A DNA stretch of 64,000 nt from a virus, in IMG/VR virus record IMGVR_UViG_3300022916_000008, positions 1 to 64,000 of that record; one strand, written 5' to 3'. Shown piece by piece: positions 21,419 through 62,790 of this stretch (its first letter is position 1; each line of letters starts with the position of its first letter). The translations under genes and the position numbers were made by a program. The notes below the pieces were generated by a model. It saw nothing but the letters and a program-made list of their open reading frames with translations. It made no database searches and was not told where the DNA came from.

Positions 21419-22345
21419 CTATTTTGATATTGATAGTTCACGTTTTAACTCTTCATGTCTTGCCTTGATCTGCATATAGACCTTCTTGCTGTCAGGTGAA
21501 GCGTCTTTAAGGCTTGTAAGTACCTCGTCTATGCCCATGCCAAGTTCCCGATCATCAAACCAGTACTTACCACCTACATATGTCAGAGCCTTACTCTTAA
21601 CCATAAGTTCCACCATAGCTTTTAATTCTATATCCTTATCTAAGCATAGCAGTTCAAATACCTTCGCTGGCTTGCTTGTGTATTCAATCTTTGTTTTACC
21701 CTTTGTGATGACTGGCTTGACTGTAGCCTGGCCATTGATAATCTCACTTAGTCTGATCTTCTTTTCAGCTGGAGTCATATTGAAAGGTGACTCTCCAAAG
21801 TATGTCAGTACCCAATCTATCTTCTCCTTTTGTTCGTCCTTGAACAGGATTGCTAGTTGGTACATAGCACTTGCTGTATCATCTATAGTGGTTTCTTTGG
21901 CCTTCATCTGATCCCGAACACTCTCAATATAAAACAAACATCTCTTAGTGTCATTCTGAGCTGCCTCATATGACTCCTTAACAATACCTGTTTTGTAATT
22001 GATGTGTGATTCAGCAATCTTCCAATATAAATAATCCTGTGGTTCAATTGGATTTCCGCTTTTGTCAAGGCCAATATTCAATCTTAAACCATCATAGGGG
22101 ACATCAATACTTGTGTCAAGTAAATACTTGGCTACAGCTTCTCTAAAACCCATACCTTGCGATACATTGGTTAGTGACTGATAGACGTTCTCTCCTATAG
22201 GGTCTTCGATCTTAAGTGGCATAATGACTCGGCTATTCTTGCTGAATACGCTAAGTGCTCTCGTAGATCCTTCGAGTAACTCTTTAGGGAGCCTGCTGTT
22301 CCCTATGGTTCTTTTGATAATTACAATGTTCTCTTGTGCTTTCAT
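21419..22345 (-). CDS. Conserved crAss-like structural protein after the MCP
   Basis: PQDYLYW motif; synteny. Confidence 0.65.
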   Translation of the reverse strand: MKAQENIVIIKRTIGNSRLPKELLEGSTRALSVFSKNSRVIMPLKIEDPIGENVYQSLTNVSQGMGFREAVAKYLLDTSIDVPYDGLRLNIGLDKSGNPIEPQDYLYWKIAESHINYKTGIVKESYEAAQNDTKRCLFYIESVRDQMKAKETTIDDTASAMYQLAILFKDEQKEKIDWVLTYFGESPFNMTPAEKKIRLSEIINGQATVKPVITKGKTKIEYTSKPAKVFELLCLDKDIELKAMVELMVKSKALTYVGGKYWFDDRELGMGIDEVLTSLKDASPDSKKVYMQIKARHEELKRELSISK

Positions 22346-22368: not shown

Positions 22369-23856
22369 TTATGCTACTAAGCTTAATCTTAAGCAAGCAG
22401 ATGTATCAAAGATATTAATTCCTTGCTCAAATAAATACTCTAAACTTGCAGAGTCTTTGTCTGTAGCAACAAAATTAGTACTTCCATACTGTGAAGGTAA
22501 AGTTGCAATACCGGCTACTACTTTACGTACCATTTCACGACCCTTACGAGTTACCATCTTGACGTTAGGAATACCATTGTATGTACTCAAGTCAAGGAAG
22601 ATAAATTCACCACTGAATGAAGGCAAGCCCTCATACTTTGGATAGTTCCTGTGAATAAGGTCAAAGACAGGATTTCTATGAACTGTAATAGTATGTCCAT
22701 CTCTTGTCTTGTATGTATTGAAGTATGCTCCTAAAGATAACTTATCACCATTCTTAGTCACAAAAGTATTCTGTGTCTGCTCTGTAGTGAAGTATGACTT
22801 TAATTTGTCTTGCATTGCCTCGTTGAAAATACGCATACCCAATGTACCTGTATGTAATTGAATGTGCTTCTTCTCTGCACCACTAATACCATAGAACAAT
22901 CTTGTAGCAATCTGCTCAAAACGTTTGGCTGTTAGTTGTCCAGAATATGTTTCAACATTAGTGATCTGGTTAAGGATGCCGTCTCCACGCAAAATAGGTT
23001 TGCCACTTGGGCCACGCTGAGGAACTGTTCCATCAGGCATACGGTTGTACTCGCTTGTCCAATAGTCAATCTCTTTATACCTTCTCATTTTCATTAAGAA
23101 CTGCCACTCTGCCCAATCCATCCAATACTTAAAGGTAGTTACACCACCGCCACCTTGACGCATAGGCATATCAAACTTTACTTTATCGAATTGTGCTGAT
23201 GCTGAACCACCAATAGGTAGTGCTGCAATATGACCTGCAAATTTCATAGATGAACGTAGAGTCGTAAGTTGATTCTTTGCCCTTCCAGGATATTGCTGTT
23301 CTGTTTCAACTCCTACTGATTCTTCGTATTCAACAGGAGATGCTCCTCTTTCCCATTCAATGCCTGCTGCAAGATCTGTAGCTGGTACTGTGGCTAAAGA
23401 GTTATTACCCATGATCTGAAGTAAATAATCATAGTTTTGCCCATTGGCTTTTGGTTGTTCTGCAATCCTACACACAACTCCCGAAGGTGATGTAATAAGG
23501 TTTTGGAACTTAAAGCGTCTGTGCTTAAAGGTTACTTGGAATAATGAGAAGCCAAGGCCAGCATTTGTTGTTGTTGTTGCTGTTACTACTGAATCCATTG
23601 GGTCCATATCTCCCTTCATAATTGGGTACTGATACTCAAATGAGTCAACGTAATCTACGTTACCCACTCCTTCAGTAAGTTTTGATATGGCAAAGTCCTC
23701 TGGATAGTAATAAGTACCCATAGCCCAAATGAGTGCATTTGAAATCTCACTTGGTCGTGTCTGCATTGCATTCACAATAGATTCATAATCAAATAAACCT
23801 TTATCGTTTTGGTAAACCCCATGTACTTCTAACTGAGGTGATACTGCGTTTGTCAT
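22369..23856 (-). CDS. Major capsid protein
   Basis: 495 aa; NQLTTLR, GDGILNQI, LHTGTLGMRIFNEA, NPVFD and FIFLD motifs; follows the scaffold gene. Confidence 0.9.
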   Translation of the reverse strand: MTNAVSPQLEVHGVYQNDKGLFDYESIVNAMQTRPSEISNALIWAMGTYYYPEDFAISKLTEGVGNVDYVDSFEYQYPIMKGDMDPMDSVVTATTTTNAGLGFSLFQVTFKHRRFKFQNLITSPSGVVCRIAEQPKANGQNYDYLLQIMGNNSLATVPATDLAAGIEWERGASPVEYEESVGVETEQQYPGRAKNQLTTLRSSMKFAGHIAALPIGGSASAQFDKVKFDMPMRQGGGGVTTFKYWMDWAEWQFLMKMRRYKEIDYWTSEYNRMPDGTVPQRGPSGKPILRGDGILNQITNVETYSGQLTAKRFEQIATRLFYGISGAEKKHIQLHTGTLGMRIFNEAMQDKLKSYFTTEQTQNTFVTKNGDKLSLGAYFNTYKTRDGHTITVHRNPVFDLIHRNYPKYEGLPSFSGEFIFLDLSTYNGIPNVKMVTRKGREMVRKVVAGIATLPSQYGSTNFVATDKDSASLEYLFEQGINIFDTSACLRLSLVA

Positions 23857-25231: not shown

Positions 25232-27601
25232 TTATTTTCTTTTCTCTCCTGAAACCGGGTTTTTTAACTTCTTGTTCTCTATGGCTATCTTGTTCTTCAT
25301 CTCTTCACGCTTGACCTTTACATCGTCTTCATGCTTCTGCTTTTCAAAGGCTAGCTTCTCTCTGTCTATATTGCTCTTGTCTAATGCTTGCCTTGCCTTA
25401 TTTGCCTCTGCTGTAATCTTTGTAGTATCAATATCAGTAACTAATGTTTCTGGCTCAAACCCTGATGCACGAATACTTGCTTCTTTTACTCTTGCTTCTC
25501 TATCCAATGCATTTTCTTGTGATTCAAAAGCCCTGGCTTCTTGTTGTTCTTTAGCTGCTGCTTCAAGTTGTTGTTGCTGCATCTCCTGCTCATGCTTACG
25601 AATCTGCTCCTCGTACTGCTTAGTAGCTGTGTCTGCTCTCTTCATAGCTAATTCAATCTCAGATATACTGTCTGATTTAACCATGCTTCCTATCATCTCT
25701 GGAGTAATACCGTTCTTGCCTACGTTCTGTGCAAATGGTTGGGTAAGAGTTCTCATTGCATCAAGCTTAACCTTGTCTTTAGTTGCCTTGCTCATGTAGA
25801 TACCTAACTCTTCTTCCTCTATGTTCCATCCCTCAAGGTCAAGGTAAAGTGGCATGCCATCAACAATATACATTCCCTTCTTATTCTTGCTATAAACTAT
25901 CTTGGCTATATTGATAATATCATTAAGCTCTTGCTCTTCAAAGTTCTCATAGTCTACAAATACTCCCTCTGAAACACTATATGCTCCTGCGAGTGCCATT
26001 TCCGTTGTTGCCTTTCCAGCGCTACTATTAATCTCTCCCCTGCGTTGTGGTGTTATACCCATATGAAGGTCAAGCTCTTGCCGTAGTGCCAATAGAACGT
26101 TTAATATGGAAGCTACTGCATTGTGTTGAGAGAAGTCAAGCTTAGCTCCCCACTGTTGGAACTTGCCCATGTCGTCTCTGCGTGAATCAAGCCATAGGAT
26201 GTGTTGCGTCTCCATGTAATACATAGCCTGATCAATGTCTTGTGACCCCAATCCATGTCGTGCTAATACGGCCTTATCAATGATTGTTACTTGCCCTTTA
26301 TCAACTGCTATGAGTCTTTCCATCTTTGCCTTGTAGATGTTCCAGTAGAACTGATATATATACGCTTCTTTTACAAGTGATGTGTTTGTTGTGTTTAGTT
26401 CAGAGAATTTTGCCTGATTATATGGAAGTGGTGTTAAAGATGGATTACTAAGCTTGCGTGATGTGTATGGAACCTCTCCTGCACCAATGAATATATCTCC
26501 GTCTATGCGGTATACCTCGTCTATACAAGTAAGCCATTCCCATTCCTCATTCACTATGTCATAGCCAAACAACTTCTTGTCAAAGGTTTGATCAACCTCT
26601 ATGGTTTGCTTCTCCTCAAACTCATCAAGGTATGAGATGTATCCTACCTTCTTATACGACCTCCAGCAAGAATGAATAACTTCTTTCATTGACCCTGTTG
26701 TAGCATCTGTATTCTGATCACGTACAAACTGTTGCCTTGTATAGTCAATAACTGCATTAGATGGCTTGTCATTGTTTGCCGATAGATCAAGAAGCTCCTT
26801 CTCTGTCATCAAGTCCCTGAAGTTGTCTACTATCTTTGATAAAGGCATCATCTTTCTATATACTGCAGCTTCCTTGTCCCTTCCGTATGGATTGTCAGGA
26901 CTACCTATAAAGTCTATATCGATAGGATTGATTACTTCATATACCAGATCATTTTGACGCATGCCTTTGTATGTGTTTATCTCTCCAGCAATTACCCAAT
27001 GCTTCATACCTATCCTATTAAGCTTCTCTTGTACCCTTTCCTCTGATACAGCTATACGAAGTATCTTCTGGGCTTCTATGGCTCTCTTGTCAATATAGTC
27101 CATCTCGTACTTCAAAGCAAGGTCTTGTACGTTTTGTACTGGCTTACTCTCGACTCCGGTATTTACTCCATTCTCATTTGCTAAGTTGATTAGATTCTGA
27201 GTAAGTGTCTTCTTTATCTCCTCTTCCATAGCAACAGTTCTTGCACTAACTGCATCTGGGTTCTTTACCACTGCTTGATAGTTCCATGGACGCTTCTCCT
27301 TTTCATTGATAATAATGTTACCATTGGCTCGGATAATGTTCCATGGTTTGACATCATTTAGTGGAAGTGGATTAGTGGTACTCTTTGTACCAAATGGATC
27401 TTCAAATCCTGAGTAATGCCCATCAATCTTTTCTCCATTAAACACCTTGTACCATGTAAGCAAGTCTTCTGTTGATGTACCATGTTTGAACTTGGACATT
27501 GTTAGATATGCTTCGAGTGTGTCTTTGTAGTGTTGGAAATCATTTGCTTTCTTTTTAGCCAATGAAATCATTTGATCGGGTACTGAAGTTACTGTAATCA
27601 T
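25232..27601 (-). CDS. Portal protein
   Basis: 789 aa; WRSYKKVG, LPYN, GITPQRRGEI motifs; coiled-coil C-terminus; follows TerL. Confidence 0.9.
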   Translation of the reverse strand: MITVTSVPDQMISLAKKKANDFQHYKDTLEAYLTMSKFKHGTSTEDLLTWYKVFNGEKIDGHYSGFEDPFGTKSTTNPLPLNDVKPWNIIRANGNIIINEKEKRPWNYQAVVKNPDAVSARTVAMEEEIKKTLTQNLINLANENGVNTGVESKPVQNVQDLALKYEMDYIDKRAIEAQKILRIAVSEERVQEKLNRIGMKHWVIAGEINTYKGMRQNDLVYEVINPIDIDFIGSPDNPYGRDKEAAVYRKMMPLSKIVDNFRDLMTEKELLDLSANNDKPSNAVIDYTRQQFVRDQNTDATTGSMKEVIHSCWRSYKKVGYISYLDEFEEKQTIEVDQTFDKKLFGYDIVNEEWEWLTCIDEVYRIDGDIFIGAGEVPYTSRKLSNPSLTPLPYNQAKFSELNTTNTSLVKEAYIYQFYWNIYKAKMERLIAVDKGQVTIIDKAVLARHGLGSQDIDQAMYYMETQHILWLDSRRDDMGKFQQWGAKLDFSQHNAVASILNVLLALRQELDLHMGITPQRRGEINSSAGKATTEMALAGAYSVSEGVFVDYENFEEQELNDIINIAKIVYSKNKKGMYIVDGMPLYLDLEGWNIEEEELGIYMSKATKDKVKLDAMRTLTQPFAQNVGKNGITPEMIGSMVKSDSISEIELAMKRADTATKQYEEQIRKHEQEMQQQQLEAAAKEQQEARAFESQENALDREARVKEASIRASGFEPETLVTDIDTTKITAEANKARQALDKSNIDREKLAFEKQKHEDDVKVKREEMKNKIAIENKKLKNPVSGEKRK

Positions 27602-27602
27602 G

Positions 27603-29735
27603 TTAGTACCATTTTGAATGTTGATAGAATTTCGCTACCCTGTCCCTATGAAAAAAATTATTCTCTTCTGTGCTATTATCTGTCATCGGAACAACATTAA
27701 TTGTCTCACGAATGTAGTACATTAAAAGTAAAAATGCATCTACACGGTCAAAATTACCATCTCCATAAGCAATCAGTTCCTGTATAAGGGGCCTATCGTA
27801 TATTGTATGTAGATTCTGGAATACACGTCCATTCTCGTCTTCTCCTCTTGATTCTACTAACCAGTCAGCTAAATACTGCTCTCCTGTTATACGTACTGTA
27901 TCATCTTTACCTGCTCCCATTTTCATACCATAACCTCTCCTTATACTTGGCCTGGCTATCTGTGTATTGTATTTGAATTCAAATTCTACTTGTAAGAATT
28001 GTAATTTCCTATGTCTTATTGCATAGTCACGTATACTCAATCCTTTGTCATTCTCAAAGGCTATCTTAGCATTGTAATACTCTGCTAACATGAATAGATT
28101 GTCAAGATATTTTTCAAGTGTTGCTGGACGACCTACATATGCTGCTGAGATAGTATTCATTCTAAACTTAAAGTCTGCATTTACCTTTTTATATACCAGC
28201 GTTGCTCCAAGTGACGGTCCATGACTCTTATCATGATAGTAAGGGTCATTGGAAAGTAAATATAGTTTGGGACGGACTTCTCCATTTACCCTGTCTGGGC
28301 TATCATATATTACCACACAGCCCTCTTCTCCTTGTTTCTTATTATTAGGGAAACTTTCTATTGGGATGTCTTTTACGCTTTGCCTGAATGCAACTTTACC
28401 AGTTCCATCTCTATACAAATGCCCTGCTCTCCCATAGTGTAATTTATATGGATCTGTCTCTACATCGGCTAAGTGCTCAATAAGTTGCTCCATAGGAAAG
28501 ATATTCTTGTTTATATTAAGCGTTGCTTCAGCAGGCGTGAAAGGATTTTCACTCTTATAGCGTAATAATGTATGTCTTTCAGTAGAACTTTGTGCTATTC
28601 TTGCTCTCTCTTGTTCTTCATAAGCAGTAGCCTCTTCTATGTTAGAATTACCATCTGAGTCCATAAAACTCTCTGAATTGATATATGCTGGCCAAAAGAA
28701 AGCTGTATTACGATGTGATGCTCCTTTGTCCCATACATTTGGTATACCATATATATTAAAGCCATCAGGATGACTGAATAGTTCTGTTAGTCCTGCATAA
28801 TCGCTTCCTGTTTGCCCACCTGTTCCGCTTGCTAAAAGAAATCCAAAGACTTTACGCCCTCTTTGTACAGAGTTACGTAGTATCTGCCATTTCTCTAATA
28901 GGTTTGGATCTTTACCTGCCTCCTCAAGATAAATAAACTTACCCCTTATACCTCTTACCTTGCCCGGATCATTTTTTGTAGTGATACCTTTTATCATAGA
29001 TTGGAATCCACTCTCTACTTCTATCCCTCTTATAGTCTCTTTGAATGAGGCTCTTTTTTCCATAGCAGTACTGGTAAGTTGTCTGCGTTTAGCAAAGTCT
29101 GTGTGCTTATCAACAAAGTACATCATATCCCATGCTTTCTGTAGCACACCATCACCAAGTAAGAAGTCCTTATCGTCTGCTATAAGGAATGAGCGTGACT
29201 TAGGGATCAGGAAATAGTTGCGTGTTGGTTTGCTTGCATTCTTGAAACTTGACCCAACTCCTCTCACTTTGAGAACAGTACCGAACTTGCCTCCCCTCTC
29301 TGCATCATCGATATACTTGTAATACCAGAAGTCACCATCCCAAAAGTTAGGGAAGCCCTCTACACGATCTGTTTTTATTAGGTCATAGTTCTTGTAAGAT
29401 ACTTCCCCTGATTCTTTGTCTACTATAATGTTTGTTTGATAGTCTTCTTCATCAGCATCCTGGTTTTTACCCAAATGGAGAATAGGGCAGAAGTTCAAAT
29501 ACCAATAGTAGTAACCGGGTATGTATATCTTCTCACCATGAGGACCTATAGGGAAGTAATCGCCATAAAGTGACCTTTTCTCTTGTAAATCCCAGAAGTC
29601 CTCTCGTAGTGGATCTCCTTCGCTGTATGGACAGTATTTACCCTTATCCTCAAAGGCATGAGCTGCTTGCAATAAGCTCTTTGTATTCTTGAACTTAATC
29701 TTATACAAATCATCCCATGTTACTACTTTGGCCAT
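27603..29735 (-). CDS. terL: Terminase large subunit
   Basis: GYYYWYLNF, Walker A-like KVRGVGSS, Walker B YLEEAG, GTGG, nuclease NDPY and GNFDRVDA. Confidence 0.93.
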   Translation of the reverse strand: MAKVVTWDDLYKIKFKNTKSLLQAAHAFEDKGKYCPYSEGDPLREDFWDLQEKRSLYGDYFPIGPHGEKIYIPGYYYWYLNFCPILHLGKNQDADEEDYQTNIIVDKESGEVSYKNYDLIKTDRVEGFPNFWDGDFWYYKYIDDAERGGKFGTVLKVRGVGSSFKNASKPTRNYFLIPKSRSFLIADDKDFLLGDGVLQKAWDMMYFVDKHTDFAKRRQLTSTAMEKRASFKETIRGIEVESGFQSMIKGITTKNDPGKVRGIRGKFIYLEEAGKDPNLLEKWQILRNSVQRGRKVFGFLLASGTGGQTGSDYAGLTELFSHPDGFNIYGIPNVWDKGASHRNTAFFWPAYINSESFMDSDGNSNIEEATAYEEQERARIAQSSTERHTLLRYKSENPFTPAEATLNINKNIFPMEQLIEHLADVETDPYKLHYGRAGHLYRDGTGKVAFRQSVKDIPIESFPNNKKQGEEGCVVIYDSPDRVNGEVRPKLYLLSNDPYYHDKSHGPSLGATLVYKKVNADFKFRMNTISAAYVGRPATLEKYLDNLFMLAEYYNAKIAFENDKGLSIRDYAIRHRKLQFLQVEFEFKYNTQIARPSIRRGYGMKMGAGKDDTVRITGEQYLADWLVESRGEDENGRVFQNLHTIYDRPLIQELIAYGDGNFDRVDAFLLLMYYIRETINVVPMTDNSTEENNFFHRDRVAKFYQHSKWY

Positions 29736-53092: not shown

Positions 53093-53578
53093 ATGATTAC
53101 CTTATGCTTCTTTGATGGCTCATGTGGAGATAGTGGTGATGGAAAGTTTCATAACCCTGGCGGTGAAATGGGAATAGGAGCTGTTGTATTCTGGAATATC
53201 GATATTGCTGTTTTTAAATCAATTATTAATAGGGAATTGTTGTCTGAGACAATATTACATAGAGACTGTGATGAGATTAGTTACAGTGTTCCTCCACACA
53301 ATTCTAATAGTAATAATGTTTCCGAATACATGGCAGTCATAGAAGTAATGAAACTACTTAATAATAACAATGATAAAATTAGTCCAAAAGTATATATCCT
53401 TGGAGACAGTAGGCTTGTAATAGAGCAGCTTAATGGGTATTGGAAAATAAAGCAGGGAAGGTATAAAAAATATGCCTTGGAAGCTAAAGAAATGATAAAG
53501 CCAAGCTATAGATTTTTATGGATACCAAGAGAGTATAATGGCTATGCAGATATTTTATCAAAACAAAAAGATATATGA
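53093..53578 (+). CDS. rnhA: Ribonuclease HI
   Basis: FDGSC, NPG, SNNVSEY, GDSRLVIEQL and WIPREYNGYAD. Confidence 0.9.
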   Translation: MITLCFFDGSCGDSGDGKFHNPGGEMGIGAVVFWNIDIAVFKSIINRELLSETILHRDCDEISYSVPPHNSNSNNVSEYMAVIEVMKLLNNNNDKISPKVYILGDSRLVIEQLNGYWKIKQGRYKKYALEAKEMIKPSYRFLWIPREYNGYADILSKQKDI

Positions 53579-53895
53579 AAAAACTAGAACAGACAAGATT
53601 ACAAAGACTATGGATGCAATTTAAGTCATGGATAAAACCTACAAAGCTTGACCTTGTAAACGAATTACGAGGTATTGATATGTTCGAACTACCAGAGTGC
53701 GATTACAAAGAACTTCCCGGTAAAAAGTTTGAACCATTTAAAATGACGATGAATCGTAATGAGTTTGATAAAGATATCATTTACCAAGACTCTTCTTTTA
53801 CAAGAATTAAGATTATTGAACCACCCAAATATAAGCGTTTCTTGTTTTTTTGGAAGAGACGTTGGGAATATACAGTAGAACCTTATAAAGAATAA
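53575..53895 (+). CDS. Protein resembling an MCP beta-domain fragment
   Basis: PG..FEPFKMT....F...I......IKIIEPP....WEYTVE parallels the MCP segment AGLGFSLFQVTF...F...I.....RIAEQP....YDYLLQ. Confidence 0.5.
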   Translation: MKKLEQTRLQRLWMQFKSWIKPTKLDLVNELRGIDMFELPECDYKELPGKKFEPFKMTMNRNEFDKDIIYQDSSFTRIKIIEPPKYKRFLFFWKRRWEYTVEPYKE

Positions 53896-54289: not shown

Positions 54290-54499
54290 ATGACGATGAG
54301 TAAGAAAAGACTAAGACATTTTTTATTGATATGCATGAGAGATGTGTATGTCAACAAAGTAAATCCGGATGAGTGGATAGATGATATTATGAAAGAAATC
54401 TCTAATTCAAAAATGTTTAACGCTACAAGTTTTCTCAATGGACTATATGTTGGAATGATTGTGCTATATGTAATACAATTAATAGTAGGAAATAGGTAA
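54290..54499 (+). CDS. Small protein with a C-terminal TM helix
   Basis: 69 aa. Confidence 0.45.
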   Translation: MTMSKKRLRHFLLICMRDVYVNKVNPDEWIDDIMKEISNSKMFNATSFLNGLYVGMIVLYVIQLIVGNR

Positions 54500-54888
54500 T
54501 GACGAAGAAGTATAAATCATACAAAGGTCCGATGATGCACCGTGGAATAGATGACCTCAAGTCCTTACATCCATGGGTATCAACAATGCAAGGAGATCAT
54601 ATGTGGTCAGACAAGGTAGATGAAGATCATACCTACTTAATGGAATCATATTCATGGAGTGGTATAGACCTTACAAGTCAGAAAGCAATTGATGAAGAAA
54701 TAGCCAGGCGTAAGGCATGGAATGAAGAGTATGTCCGTGGGTTGTTAATTAACGGCAGCTATGGAGAAGATATTGGACAGAATGAGATTAAGATGATAGT
54801 TGATTCCTTTTGGGATAAATCAATAGGGAGCCAGCCAAAGTCATCATATAAGATGATATTTTTAGATCATGGTAAAACAAAAACATAA
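54499..54888 (+). CDS. Protein ending in an MCP C-terminal-like motif
   Basis: FWD...PKSSYKMIFLDHG versus MCP VFD...PSFSGEFIFLDLS. Confidence 0.5.
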   Translation: MTKKYKSYKGPMMHRGIDDLKSLHPWVSTMQGDHMWSDKVDEDHTYLMESYSWSGIDLTSQKAIDEEIARRKAWNEEYVRGLLINGSYGEDIGQNEIKMIVDSFWDKSIGSQPKSSYKMIFLDHGKTKT

Positions 54889-57653: not shown

Positions 57654-59183
57654 ATGGAAAATAAACATACATTTGAATGTACTGTATTAAATAAAATCCG
57701 TCATATTAACGATTGGAGGATTTATACATTTGTTACAGATGAAAGCGTACCTCATACAATACCTTTGAAAATAAAAGGGACTCATCATGGAAAAAACTTT
57801 GGCAGGCTCACATGCTTTAATGATATGACCAGAAACACTAAGTATGTTATTTCTATAAGCATACGTAATAGCAAGAATAAAGATCAGAATGGCATATGCT
57901 ATAAAAACTTATATCTTGAAACATATTATCCTATACTTGGTGAAGAAGCAGATCAGGATTTTTTAAAAGCCATTGTATCAGAAGCAAGATATGATTTGAT
58001 TATGTCTGTTTACCCAGACTTCATTGACTTGGTTCGTAATGGAAAAGAAATAGATCTAAACTTATTACCCGGTATTAAAGAAAAGACTTTTGCTATTATC
58101 AGAGACAAGGTTACAATCAATTACTGGAAGGCTGAGCTTATGTCATGGCTATTACCACTTGGTATTACCGAGAAGATGATCCAGAAGCTTATAGGTAGGT
58201 ATAAGACACCTGATGCACTCAAGGTAGCATTAAAAGGTAATCCATACATACTTACTGAGATTCATGGATTAGGTTTCTTTAGAGTAGATGATATGGTCAT
58301 GAAAATGTTTCCTGAAAAAAGAGTTAGTAGGGAGCGCATGATGGCATTTGTTACTTATCAGCTACAACATGTAGGGAATACGTCTGGACATACTGTAATC
58401 AGTAAAGCAGATATACTTGTATACATAAAGAAAAGTATACCGGAATGTGAGGCATTGTATAAGATAATGGCAAGTAGTCCAACGCAAGAATTATTGATAA
58501 TGTATAATGAGTTCGTAGGGCTTAAGCGTTACTATGATGCTGAGAAGTATATCTATGAAAAGCTCAAGAAGATAGCAGATGCGCCTATAGAGGTTATGCA
58601 TAATGAGAATGACTATATCTTTATGACAGAGGAGAAGATAGGCTTTAAGTTATCAGAAGAACAGAAGGAAGCTATAGAGTCATTACAAACCAATAACCTT
58701 GTGATAATCGTAGGAAGTGCTGGTGTTGGTAAAACAAGTTCTATTCAGGGAATTATACATGAATATGATGAGTGGGATATACTCTTGTGTTCATTAAGCG
58801 CTAAGGCTGCTGATAGGATGAGAGAGATAACAGGTAAGGAAGCATTTACTATTCATAGAGCATTAGGATATGACGGAAAAGGTTTTGCTTACAATGAAAG
58901 AAGTCCATTACACAACAAGGTTATTATTATTGATGAAGCCAGTATGGCTAATCTATACATCTTTAAATCATTGATAGAGGCTATAAGTATAGGGTCTAAA
59001 TTAGTAATAGTTGGAGATGATGGACAGTTACCGCCAATAGGGGCAGGTAATGTCTTTCAGGATTTATTGCAGAGTGAATTTAAGATATGTAGGCTTACAA
59101 AGATATACAGGCAGGCACAGAGGAGTGGTATCATAGTAGATGCTAATTATATTAGAAAAGGAATTAACCCATTTAAACAATAG
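57654..59183 (+). CDS. RecD2-like helicase, N-terminal part (HhH plus domain 1A)
   Basis: NPYILTEIHGLGF, GSAGVGKT, TIHRALG, DEASM, GDDGQLPPIGAG and LTKIYRQ; stops before motifs V/VI. Confidence 0.85.
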   Translation: MENKHTFECTVLNKIRHINDWRIYTFVTDESVPHTIPLKIKGTHHGKNFGRLTCFNDMTRNTKYVISISIRNSKNKDQNGICYKNLYLETYYPILGEEADQDFLKAIVSEARYDLIMSVYPDFIDLVRNGKEIDLNLLPGIKEKTFAIIRDKVTINYWKAELMSWLLPLGITEKMIQKLIGRYKTPDALKVALKGNPYILTEIHGLGFFRVDDMVMKMFPEKRVSRERMMAFVTYQLQHVGNTSGHTVISKADILVYIKKSIPECEALYKIMASSPTQELLIMYNEFVGLKRYYDAEKYIYEKLKKIADAPIEVMHNENDYIFMTEEKIGFKLSEEQKEAIESLQTNNLVIIVGSAGVGKTSSIQGIIHEYDEWDILLCSLSAKAADRMREITGKEAFTIHRALGYDGKGFAYNERSPLHNKVIIIDEASMANLYIFKSLIEAISIGSKLVIVGDDGQLPPIGAGNVFQDLLQSEFKICRLTKIYRQAQRSGIIVDANYIRKGINPFKQ

Positions 59184-59187
59184 TATT

Positions 59188-59448
59188 ATGGATTGGGAGA
59201 AAGAGTATAAAAAGTGTATAGGGAATCCTTATTATTTCTATACAACATATGTCCTTGTTAATGGAAAGCAAGCAACAACAATGTTGTCAAAAGAAGAGTT
59301 TAATAAATATTTTGAAGCAAAGAGATATTCTGAATGGTGGAGAAAGACAACTCCTAAACACATACAGGAAAAGATGCAAAAAGAATTTGACAAGATAGAG
59401 GAGGAACTTTGGACTAAAGAGTATAAGAAAGATGGCAATAATAACTAG
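59188..59448 (+). CDS. Inserted mini-ORF with a terminase N-terminus-like motif
   Basis: EYKKCIGNPYYFYTTYV; lies between the two RecD2 halves. Confidence 0.6.
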   Translation: MDWEKEYKKCIGNPYYFYTTYVLVNGKQATTMLSKEEFNKYFEAKRYSEWWRKTTPKHIQEKMQKEFDKIEEELWTKEYKKDGNNN

Positions 59449-60094
59449 AGGAGAGCTAAAGGATATTCACTATTCCTTTATAGAGGAGAGGGATAAGATA
59501 TTCGATCAGGCAGTACGTGCTTATATGAAAGCTGCAGGAAAGTATGGAACAGATGAGGTTATTCTTATCACTCCTAAGCGTATACATGAGGGTCTAACTA
59601 CTAATAGCTTTAACAGGGCTATTCAGGACTTGCTTATTGAGAAAGATGTTAAGTCAATGAAAAGAGGAGCTCATGAGTTTAGGTTAGGCGCTAAAGTAAT
59701 ACAGAAGGAGAATGATTACAAAGGCAAGGGAGTTATCAATGGGCAGATAGGATATATATGGTCTATAAGTGATGAAGGGTTTAGCGTGGACTTCAAGGGA
59801 GAGGTTGTAGAATACCAAAAGGATGAGATCAGGCAGATAGAACTTGCCTATGCATTAACAGGACATTCCTATCAGGGTAGCCAGGCGAAGATCGTTATCA
59901 TTGCCTTTGATATGAGTGTATACATATTATTGTCCAGACAGTGGCTGTATACGGCTATCACAAGGGCACAAGAACAATGCTATATCATATGTCCAAAGAA
60001 AGCTCATGATGTAACAATTGGAAAGAACTTCACACACCGAAGAACATTTATGCAGAGAATATTAGCAACAGCAAAACTATTAATGACATTATAA
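59432..60094 (+). CDS. RecD2-like helicase, C-terminal part (domains 2A/2B)
   Basis: FRLGAKVIQKEN, INGQIG, LAYALTGHSYQGS and LYTAITRA. Confidence 0.85.
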   Translation: MAIITRGELKDIHYSFIEERDKIFDQAVRAYMKAAGKYGTDEVILITPKRIHEGLTTNSFNRAIQDLLIEKDVKSMKRGAHEFRLGAKVIQKENDYKGKGVINGQIGYIWSISDEGFSVDFKGEVVEYQKDEIRQIELAYALTGHSYQGSQAKIVIIAFDMSVYILLSRQWLYTAITRAQEQCYIICPKKAHDVTIGKNFTHRRTFMQRILATAKLLMTL

Positions 60095-61044: not shown

Positions 61045-61155
61045 GTAAGAAAAAGAAAGATGGTTATAAACCTCATATGTGTGAGATGTGTGAGAAGGAG
61101 CCAAGTGCTATAATCACATTAGAAAGGAAACGGATATGTTTAAAATGTTGGAAGG

Positions 61156-61701
61156 ATGAAAACAAAGACCTGTAGTATTTGCGATAGACCTGTTTGGAAG
61201 AATGGGAAGTGTAGGTATCATGACGATACACAGAAGCCTCTGGTGAGCTCTTCTAACTTCAAGAGTACAAATGTACCACTTAGGAGGAGATCGTCCATCA
61301 GCGTTCCTTATACAGCCTTAAAACGCAAGTCTCCTAATAAGGTTGAGAACACTGAATGGGGATATGACAATCAGTTTGGAATGTTCTTATCTTTATGGGA
61401 GAATGCTAAGAAAGCAGGAAAGGTATATTCACAGATATCAGGAATAGATATTACATGGACATATGGAACAGACTTATGGGTAAATTGCTTTGCCCACATA
61501 CTTGCAAAAGGGATCTATCCTCGGTGGAAGTTGAATCCTGCTAACATAATGATAGTAGAACCACATGAACATTCACTTTTAGATCAAGGGACGGTTAAAC
61601 AAAGACAAGACTATGAAAAGAAATATAATTGCAGCTTTGATATCTTTTATGAAAAGAAAGACAGGCTTAAGATCGAGTACATGGCCACAACGAGCCGTTG
61701 A
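61156..61701 (+). CDS. HNH/NinG-like nuclease-fold protein
   Basis: N-terminal CxxC..C..H; FAHILAKG.YP...NPANI...EH. Confidence 0.55.
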   Translation: MKTKTCSICDRPVWKNGKCRYHDDTQKPLVSSSNFKSTNVPLRRRSSISVPYTALKRKSPNKVENTEWGYDNQFGMFLSLWENAKKAGKVYSQISGIDITWTYGTDLWVNCFAHILAKGIYPRWKLNPANIMIVEPHEHSLLDQGTVKQRQDYEKKYNCSFDIFYEKKDRLKIEYMATTSR

Positions 61702-62524
61702 GTATTATAATAATAATATAAAGGATGATCCATGGAAAGCATCTACTAGCTGGTCCGATACAGGCAAGAGATATACTTGTGGTGCTGATCCTTATAGGAA
61801 TGTCGATGATGTTACTTATCATTGGCCTCTAGGTAAGGGTATATTAGAACAGGTAAGGGATAGCAACTATGTAGAGTATTCCAAAATGCCACCAGTGACA
61901 GGGGAGTCCATTAAGGAAGCGTGTAGGAGAGCATTGGAGCAATATATAAATCCTGTTATTGAAACGGATAGAGCAGGTGCTAAAATGTTTCATGAAGCAA
62001 TGAAACGAGCTGCTGCTGCTGATTATCCTACACCTATTGAACATGACAAGAACAAAGCCTATGACTACTACTATGATCAATATAAAGAAGCACTAGAAAA
62101 GCGAGTAGCTAAGGATAGAGCAGAAGTCAATGAAAAAGGTACTGTATTTTCTAAGGAACAGATAGAGAAGTTAGAGAAAGAACATCCGGGATTCATTCAA
62201 TCTGCAATACAGTCTGGAGATATTAAACCTTCAGATATGCATCCTTCATTAAAAGAACACAACCAACTATACTTTACCAAAGATGTTAGTGAAGATACTG
62301 ATAGGCACAAACCTTTTCATATATATACAAACAAGCCAATTGCTAAATACAACAGCAAAGGTATTGAACACAAGATAGTAACTTCATGTGGTGATGAGTT
62401 TAGGATGATAAATGACAATAGTTATTCTGATGGATATACATGGGTAATGTATTGTGCTAATACCAATATAGGTTATGCAGCAGCAGTCTCAAAGGGTGAT
62501 GAATTTGTATTAAAAGAAGTTTAG
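61613..62524 (+). CDS. Mosaic protein of MCP- and TerL-like motifs
   Basis: YTCGADPY, VDDVTYHWPL, GKGILEQV and TDRAGAKMFHEAM; the start is preceded by an AAGAC leader. Confidence 0.6.
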   Translation: MKRNIIAALISFMKRKTGLRSSTWPQRAVEYYNNNIKDDPWKASTSWSDTGKRYTCGADPYRNVDDVTYHWPLGKGILEQVRDSNYVEYSKMPPVTGESIKEACRRALEQYINPVIETDRAGAKMFHEAMKRAAAADYPTPIEHDKNKAYDYYYDQYKEALEKRVAKDRAEVNEKGTVFSKEQIEKLEKEHPGFIQSAIQSGDIKPSDMHPSLKEHNQLYFTKDVSEDTDRHKPFHIYTNKPIAKYNSKGIEHKIVTSCGDEFRMINDNSYSDGYTWVMYCANTNIGYAAAVSKGDEFVLKEV

Positions 62525-62526
62525 TT

Positions 62527-62790
62527 ATGAAAGATCAGAAATATAACAAAGGAGATAGAATCAGGATAATCAATTACGGACATCAGATATGGGAACAGTC
62601 AGGTGTTCCGGGCAAGGTAAAAGTAATAGACTTAAGTCCAGAATTAGTAGGACAGCTTGGAACTATTCAGTATTCTTATAATGACCTATATGATTCAAAA
62701 CTAAGGAGGTCAGCCGAACAGTATAGTATTAAATTTGATAATGGCAGGGAAGTGTCTTGGTTTACTCTTAATCAATTAGAAAGAATTTAA
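62527..62790 (+). CDS. SH3-like small protein
   Basis: KYNKGDRIRI...GTI...YSIKF...WF...LERI. Confidence 0.55.
   Translation: MKDQKYNKGDRIRIINYGHQIWEQSGVPGKVKVIDLSPELVGQLGTIQYSYNDLYDSKLRRSAEQYSIKFDNGREVSWFTLNQLERI

Follow-up and report, generated by a model that had tools for sequence, protein, structure and literature searches.

A replication-block gene of a marine crAss-like phage encodes a protein with a predicted capsid I-domain-like C-terminal barrel

Gp32, the major capsid protein (MCP) in the crAss-like phage phicrAss001, carries at residues 79-180 an I-domain, a beta-barrel inserted in the E-loop that is widespread in crassviruses and makes up much of the outer capsid surface of crAss-like phages (PMC10172136). 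Here we describe a gene from the replication region of such a phage whose product is predicted to end in a barrel of this type. The gene is a plus-strand open reading frame (ORF) of 303 amino acids (protein P0002) in the IMG/VR virus record IMGVR_UViG_3300022916_000008, which is 90.9 kb long and whose first 64 kb constitute the stretch of DNA analysed in this work (the window). DNA of this phage recurs across seawater metagenome runs from 17 studies, and we therefore consider it a marine crAss-like phage. Its own MCP (P0001, the resident MCP) shares about 31% identity with the MCPs of gut crAssphages, and relatives of this protein carry the Pfam family PF23898. The window is divided into a structural arm on the minus strand and a replication arm on the plus strand. 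The latter extends from about 32 kb to 62.8 kb, with a reversal of the GC skew at each end. The 303-aa ORF is the penultimate gene of the plus-strand replication/recombination block, downstream of genes for a resolvase of RusA type, a RecD-like helicase encoded as two pieces, a UvsX-like recombinase and a Cys-rich 181-aa protein. This position on the strand opposite to the structural genes had been correctly recognised in the original prediction, which described the ORF as stitched together from the most conserved motifs of the MCP and the terminase (TerL). Our literature search found no paper on MCP decoys, nor any on I-domain copies outside the capsid genes of Crassvirales.

Structure prediction indicated that the C-terminal third of the ORF product is likely to fold as the MCP I-domain does, and this is the best supported of its likenesses to the MCP. 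Two template-free AlphaFold2 models, one of the full-length protein and one of the barrel alone, were generated with the four sequences of the family as the only input. In the full-length model (pLDDT 45 overall) residues 214-303 formed a beta domain with pLDDT values of 62-72; fold searches with this model say nothing on residues 1-213, whose pLDDT was below 50. When the barrel-alone model was compared with the whole PDB using Foldseek, the chains of the phicrAss001 MCP ranked 1-3 of 350,542 (TM 0.69, rmsd 2.9 Å, E 0.018), the next family being that of dUTPases with TM values of 0.43-0.45. A search of BFVD placed several crAss-like MCPs among the best matches, with TM values of up to 0.68; a family missing from these lists is not thereby excluded. 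In the predicted model, the barrel superposes on gp32 residues 79-180, at a sequence identity to the MCP I-domain of about 10-13%. Release of the gp32 structure 7QOF dates from 2023, later than the training cut-off of AlphaFold2.

The same correspondence was obtained by profile comparison with hhalign, in which no structure is used. ORF residues 182-299 were aligned on MCP residues 68-169 (score 21.9), and a profile of the barrel placed its residues 252-303 on MCP 118-168 with a P value of 0.006 against an I-domain slice, above 100 of 100 shuffles. Across the comparisons made, the P values for the barrel ranged from 0.006 to 0.14, in the register of the superposition. The original prediction had noted, as its weakest element, a resemblance between the C-terminus of the ORF and the MCP. 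The paired strings on which that resemblance was based are at chance level when taken alone, whereas the MCP region and the register that they marked coincide with those of hhalign and of the structural superposition. The barrel of the ORF is not inserted in an E-loop, as it forms the C-terminus of a protein in which no HK97 core was detectable. The absence of such a core, with its N-arm, E-loop and P- and A-domains, together with the lack of a match to the crAss MCP family PF23898 at E values up to 1-5, bears out the earlier view of the ORF as something other than a second capsid gene.

Regarding the ORF as a gene, it is real, being conserved and intact in independent samples, namely on contig L001 and in seawater runs from 17 studies. 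An exhaustive phmmer search among 1.84 billion representative proteins retrieved three relatives. P0003 is 92% identical to the ORF product, and P0004 (336 aa) shares about 30% identity with it across 93% of the length. P0005 (162 aa) matches only residues 213-301, with 44% identity over the barrel, and in this protein a short DPWK motif is joined directly to the barrel, without the 170-residue middle of the ORF. The barrel can therefore be regarded as a movable module. Beyond the barrel, at residues 119-130, P0005 shows a stretch rich in Trp, LKWIDYKEWYFH. By hhalign this stretch is paired with MCP 243-254 (P 0.014-0.05); it is too short to carry weight, and it is co-linear with the order in the MCP, where the I-domain is followed by residues 243-254. 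The blocks that are invariant in P0002 and P0004 comprise STWPQRxVEYY..DPWK..YTCGADPYR, AKxFHxAM..AAAxYP, the 17-residue PGFIQSAIQSGDIK and a set of barrel residues. No relatives were detected in 50,697 phage records, by a pattern scan of IMG/VR, or in the genomes of five related crAss-like phages, of which three are complete and two are 85-89% complete. A metagenome scan recovered only a 98% identical copy, on contig L001, and a homologue search with the family profile added no member. This narrow occurrence indicates an accessory gene of a narrow lineage.

The likely start of the gene lies within the longest form of the ORF, whose first 89 nt overlap the preceding gene. Since the homologue P0004 begins just ahead of the conserved STWPQR block, five residues upstream of it, the ATG at residue 13 is the likelier start. 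The differences between P0003 and P0002 are restricted to the region upstream of this block with respect to the N-terminus: the first 21 residues of P0003 are unrelated to those of the ORF despite an overall identity of 92%, which suggests that P0003 has another upstream neighbour and that the 5′ end of the gene (61613-61675) marks a junction formed by recombination. Further variation concentrates in a linker patch just ahead of the barrel. Four of the five amino-acid differences between the ORF and its copy on contig L001 are located at residues 215-218, within this patch, and the ratio of non-synonymous to synonymous changes (dN/dS) relative to L001 rests on nine differing codons only, four of the five non-synonymous ones being in the patch. 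In the population variant from run X7, 11 of the 14 base differences within the ORF are found there, and P0003 has the same variant of the patch. As for family assignments, the ESM Atlas offered neither a model of the ORF nor a usable feature match, and a sequence-profile search of the PDB with the ORF family returned noise (E at least 0.13), including a match of a single TPR-like repeat to residues 25-54. For the N-terminal half, a nuclease of RuvC/RNase H-like type, an idea derived from YTCGADPY...PVIETD with its 58-residue spacing, found no support in Pfam, PHROG or PDB profile searches.

On the most economical account of these data, the ORF product is an accessory early/middle protein that contains an ancient capsid module, either shared or exapted. 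The reading that we favour as a whole, and to which we give an even chance, is that of a genuine, narrowly distributed accessory gene for a modular soluble protein whose C-terminal, I-domain-like barrel binds a partner or a recogniser of the capsid I-domain. The protein would be made up of an N-terminal motif block, a mainly helical middle, the variable linker and a C-terminal six-stranded beta-barrel. Its likeness to the capsid protein would reflect a domain that the two share from long ago and that has diverged strongly, and possibly a further segment in common (ORF 68-135 and MCP 285-353, see below). The protein would be produced together with those of the replication genes, either ahead of the structural proteins or at the same time as them. 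A free I-domain look-alike might then bind the normal partner of the capsid I-domain, that is, an auxiliary capsid protein or a neighbouring MCP at the local three-fold, or the barrel might instead bind something that recognises the I-domain surface; the conserved N-terminal half would carry the actual activity or a second binding site. This proposed binding is derived from what the I-domain does in the capsid. Several observations weigh against the favoured reading. The model of the barrel is moderate, the best of five having a pLDDT of 72.7 and the others 37-58, from four input sequences. The Foldseek E values, of which the best is the one given above, are not significant, and a hidden Markov model (HMM) search of the barrel against 82 MCP sequences found nothing (best E 0.12). 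In addition, the N-terminal two thirds of the ORF product have no predicted fold, and the sole RNA run covers only 61100-61324, upstream of the ORF. Co-folding of the MCP with ORF residues 22-303 gave a score of 0.00 with an uncertain fold of the partner, and counts neither for nor against binding.

The strongest competing explanation, unlikely in our judgement and still deserving serious weight, is that the C-terminal domain is a small closed beta-barrel of a sort common in phage proteins and not specially related to the capsid protein, and that the ORF product serves recombination, replication or host takeover as a protein- or nucleic-acid-binding module. The packing of the gene among those for the RusA-, RecD- and UvsX-like proteins would suit such an adaptor, and so would the weakness of the sequence signal between barrel and MCP described above. 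Against a generic barrel stand the recurrence of crAss-like MCPs in the BFVD lists, the agreement of the hhalign register, which is independent of structure and above all shuffles, and a further part of the ORF, distinct from the barrel, whose profile match likewise leads to the MCP.

That second segment, residues 68-135, showed a borderline profile match to MCP residues 285-353, a segment of the HK97-fold A-domain/G-loop that includes the invariant MCP columns G293, Q297, I298, Y304, G337 and G340. With an alignment of 21 MCP sequences, hhalign placed residues 47-140 of the ORF family on MCP 266-358 (score 34.3, P 8e-4; score 37.8 for P0002 alone), and P0004 alone was placed on MCP 285-369 (score 31.2, P 0.002), its P values for this MCP region being 0.002-0.006 overall. 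A deeper profile, built from the resident MCP and 60 IMG/VR MCPs independently of the 21-sequence alignment, gave a score of 36.8 with the family and one of 40.1 with P0002 (P 1e-4, hhalign probability 58%), with the core of the match at ORF 68-135 and MCP 285-353. The highest score among 200 column shuffles of the ORF family, residue shuffles being a lenient null, was 29.1, the reversed alignment scored 14.3, and five control profiles built in the same way (portal, TerL and three neighbours of the MCP) reached at most 27.2. Among 38,880 PHROGs, the best match of the ORF was phrog_11589, the family of the resident MCP (E 0.03, residues 12-93); this match disappeared with the 92% identical P0003 and with P0004.

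Other data limit what can be drawn from this segment. About 100 ORFs were implicitly compared by eye in the original prediction, and the expectation for the 68-135 block corrected for this number is about 0.01-0.1, which leaves the match borderline after multiple testing. In the family alignment, GMGIKEQI of P0004 sits at TGESIKEAC of P0002 and not at GKGILEQV, and P0004 has some 17 residues fewer between the two MCP-like motifs; the motifs are therefore not at homologous positions in the family. The same region also matched the profile of an unrelated neighbour (P 0.005), the AlphaFold2 model is unreliable over it (pLDDT 23-36), and the 70 residues between the two MCP-like segments match nothing in the MCP. 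True homology of the block to MCP 285-353 is a real possibility that we hold a little short of probable. The relative order of the two segments is inverted between the proteins, since in the MCP the I-domain precedes the 285-353 block and in the ORF the barrel follows residues 68-135; the partly shuffled order noticed in the original prediction is borne out to this extent.

These two segments are the basis of a further explanation, which we consider improbable: the ORF would be an MCP derivative rearranged by duplication, deletion and permutation, with a segment from the A-domain side first and the I-domain last, and would act as a dominant-negative mimic of MCP that is not yet assembled, either blocking the heads of co-infecting relatives or serving as a decoy for MCP-sensing immunity, as in the original prediction but with the terminase left aside. 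Such a derivative would account for the match of residues 68-135 with two profiles (P 1e-4 to 8e-4), for the rise in score with the deeper one (from 34.3 to 36.8 and from 37.8 to 40.1), for scores in excess of all shuffles and control profiles, for the agreement of P0004 alone on the same MCP region and for the rank of phrog_11589; the I-domain fold match in the same protein pair, in turn, raises the prior for the second segment. Defence systems that sense MCPs do exist, namely Avs7 and Dsr1 (bioRxiv 10.64898/2026.01.04.697583). The loss of the PHROG match with both relatives, the silence of the Pfam crAss MCP model, the motif offset and shorter spacing in P0004, the match of an unrelated neighbour to the same region, the corrected expectation and the unmatched 70 intervening residues all speak against it. 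An extended form of this explanation appears to us quite improbable: an exapted and permuted capsid-gene remnant, in which a segment from the G-loop/A-domain side precedes the I-domain, would be made by marine crAss-like phages with the replication genes as a soluble look-alike of unassembled MCP. It would be one instance of a more general tendency of crAss-like phages to retain free copies of the I-domain where the replication arm ends, copies which would blunt MCP-sensing immunity or sabotage the heads of co-infecting relatives.

Next to be considered are the short motifs from which the original prediction had assembled an epitope collage, including the terminase, that would titrate sensors of the Avs3, Avs4 or CapRel type. 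Every string quoted is present in the ORF, the MCP or TerL, and YTCGADPYR is conserved in the ORF family. When shuffled sequences were used as the null, however, the individual MCP pairs were at chance: an equally good match occurred for VDDVTYHWPL in 63% of shuffles, for GKGILEQV in 41% and for the 17-mer VIETDR..AMK in 16%, and each of the four C-terminal pairs had thousands of equally good windows. The TerL pair (4 of 8 residues identical) was equalled or beaten in 99% of shuffled TerL sequences. In BLASTP the ORF matched the MCP with E values of at least 0.2 and TerL with values of at least 3.6, the TerL motif pair itself having an E value of 25, and hhalign of the terminase-like region against a 23-sequence TerL profile gave P values of 0.3-0.4. 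No terminase family was found in PHROG or Pfam scans of the ORF, which does not belong to the large terminases of the phrog_6681 type. In sequence terms, the terminase likeness of the ORF is chance. In profile checks of the kind that had been proposed, with shuffled controls, the matches of the MCP 285-353 segment and of the barrel exceeded shuffles; the terminase profile gave no significant match.

The notion of stitching from conserved motifs did not hold either. In single-sequence hhalign comparisons within the genome, the resident MCP was not among the six best matches of the ORF, which therefore is not a recent cut-and-paste product, and the similarity that is supported involves a whole domain at 10-13% identity. 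Moreover, what the sensors named recognise, through large interfaces, are folded proteins and not strings of 8-10 residues. Altogether, we regard the collage as very improbable. That the ORF is decaying or spurious, as its few homologues and lack of family assignment might suggest, is hardly credible in view of its full-length conservation at 30% identity with invariant blocks, its intactness in samples of independent origin, where few changes lie outside a single linker patch, its tight operon packing and its foldable C-terminal domain.

The positions of the features of the ORF, of their counterparts in the MCP and of the genes referred to above are collected in Table 1.

Table 1. Positions in the window of the 303-aa ORF, its conserved and MCP-like segments, and related or neighbouring genes
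Feature	Position	Strand	Basis or remark
ORF (P0002), 303 aa plus stop, longest form	61613-62524	+	98% identical copy on contig L001; seawater runs, 17 studies
ATG at residue 13 of the long ORF, likelier start	61649-61651	+	Homologue comparison
N-terminal conserved block, residues 22-62, STWPQRxVEYY..IKxDPWKxST.W..YTCGADPYR	61676-61798	+	Family alignments; DPWK part also in P0005
Residues 68-135, borderline profile match to MCP 285-353, GxGIxxQ[IV]..N..YS..T..G...F.EAM	61814-62017	+	hhalign, P 1e-4 to 8e-4
Most conserved family block, residues 180-208, SKxxIEKxEKxxPGFIQSAIQSGDIKxSD	62150-62236	+	Predicted helical; near-identical in P0002 and P0004
Variable linker patch, residues ~213-220, just ahead of the barrel	62248-62272	+	L001, X7 and P0003 variants
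C-terminal beta-barrel, residues 214-303, predicted I-domain-like fold	62252-62521	+	AlphaFold2 models, Foldseek, hhalign
Upstream gene, 181 aa, Cys-rich N-terminus	61156-61701	+	Overlaps 5′ end of the 303-aa ORF; no Pfam or PHROG match
87-aa gene, last of the plus-strand block	62527-62790	+	Starts 2 nt past the ORF stop; no family match
Resident MCP (P0001)	22369-23856	-	phrog_11589 match, E 9e-78
Resident MCP I-domain, residues ~72-173, counterpart of the ORF barrel	23338-23643	-	P0001 72-171 aligns to 7QOF 77-175
MCP residues 285-353, counterpart of ORF 68-135	22798-23004	-	hhalign
Portal	25232-27601	-	Structural arm
TerL	27603-29735	-	Structural arm

A search of the 219 ORFs of the genome with an HMM built for the MCP placed the 303-aa ORF second among the non-self matches (E 0.06 over 93 residues). 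The best non-self match in the genome was a plus-strand ORF of 106 aa at 53575-53895 (E 0.025), which hhalign aligns (P 0.004-0.007) with MCP 94-147 or 99-147, a part of the I-domain. This ORF lacks a PHROG match, and hhalign showed no relation to the barrel of the 303-aa ORF. In another plus-strand ORF, of 129 aa at 54499-54888 and third in this ranking, a C-terminal motif of 11 residues corresponds to MCP 412-422 (hhalign P 0.001, hmmsearch E 0.22). These three ORFs hit the MCP HMM at E values of 0.22 or below, and a third-best E value of 0.22 was reached in none of 150 shuffled proteomes.

The genes flanking the 303-aa ORF overlap or abut it, and no terminator-like site was found nearby; a scan for sigma-70-type promoters and terminators, which does not cover Bacteroidota promoters, revealed nothing above shuffle expectation. 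The 181-aa protein encoded upstream combines an N-terminal CxxC...C..H cluster with a C-terminal AH...N...H..H-like stretch and is HNH- or NinG-like by eye, a likeness not backed by any Pfam or PHROG family. For the 87-aa gene downstream, hhalign revealed nothing against the ORF barrel or the MCP. In the population variant of run X7, and in L001, which is 92% identical over this gene, a dense patch of substitutions occupies 62654-62733 within an otherwise conserved neighbourhood. One base is deleted at 62707 and the frame is restored by an insertion after 62711, resulting in a short local frame change. A single uninterrupted ORF of 6,492 aa (genome positions 62875-82353, minus strand) converges on the replication arm and runs past the end of the window; its location suggests that it presumably encodes the giant virion RNA polymerase of crAss type. 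Further upstream in the plus-strand block, the RecD/exonuclease V-like helicase (phrog_4412) is split between two of the plus-strand ORFs at 57654-59183, 59140-59448 and 59432-60094, which cover profile positions 53-507 and 518-741, and a 102-aa ORF without assignment overlaps both edges of the gap.

In the structural arm, the gene directly downstream of the MCP (21419-22345, minus strand) encodes a 308-aa protein without phage-database match and with a weak PDB sequence match to RecA residues 226-298 (E 0.003). Since 68 homologues of this gene adjoin MCP genes in IMG/VR loci, it can be considered a conserved head-module gene. Sequence searches of the phage identified no equivalent of the auxiliary capsid protein gp36.

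What is new here is an I-domain-type barrel in a new context, fused behind a conserved part of 210 residues in a marine lineage. If the reading that we favour is true, expression of a soluble copy in the replication block would give the phage a simple means of occupying binders of the I-domain surface, and the candidates for such binders would be the assembly partners of the phage itself, those of a rival or a host sensor of capsid proteins. The barrel may also bear on the origin of the I-domain insertion in the capsid protein. From the analytical point of view, it has to be kept in mind that the look-alikes of 8-10 residues turned out to be at chance level, and that the likeness rated weakest in the original prediction is the real one.

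Among described systems, the closest known match to the ORF barrel is the I-domain of phicrAss001 gp32 (residues 79-180; PDB 7QOF, 7QOH and 7QOI; Bayfield et al. 2023, PMC10172136). In gp32 the barrel is an E-loop insertion of an HK97-fold subunit and takes part in a three-fold assembly with an auxiliary protein, whereas in the ORF it is the C-terminus of a non-capsid protein of the replication block, about 10-13% identical and devoid of a detectable HK97 core. The I-domain of the coat proteins of P22, CUS-3 and Sf6 (PDB 2M5S, 6MNT, 8SKG and 7SP4) is a much weaker match. A different kind of parallel is offered by Ccm of the satellite SaPIbov5, reportedly an altered capsid-protein homologue that redirects or blocks head assembly and keeps a recognisable HK97 fold. 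Unlike Ccm, the ORF product retains no more than a single accessory domain and a short segment. By analogy with Ccm, it would be a capsid-protein-like product encoded apart from the normal head gene that could join or block assembly, and proteins of the Ccm type thus provide a mechanistic model for the explanation in which the ORF acts as a poison of head assembly.

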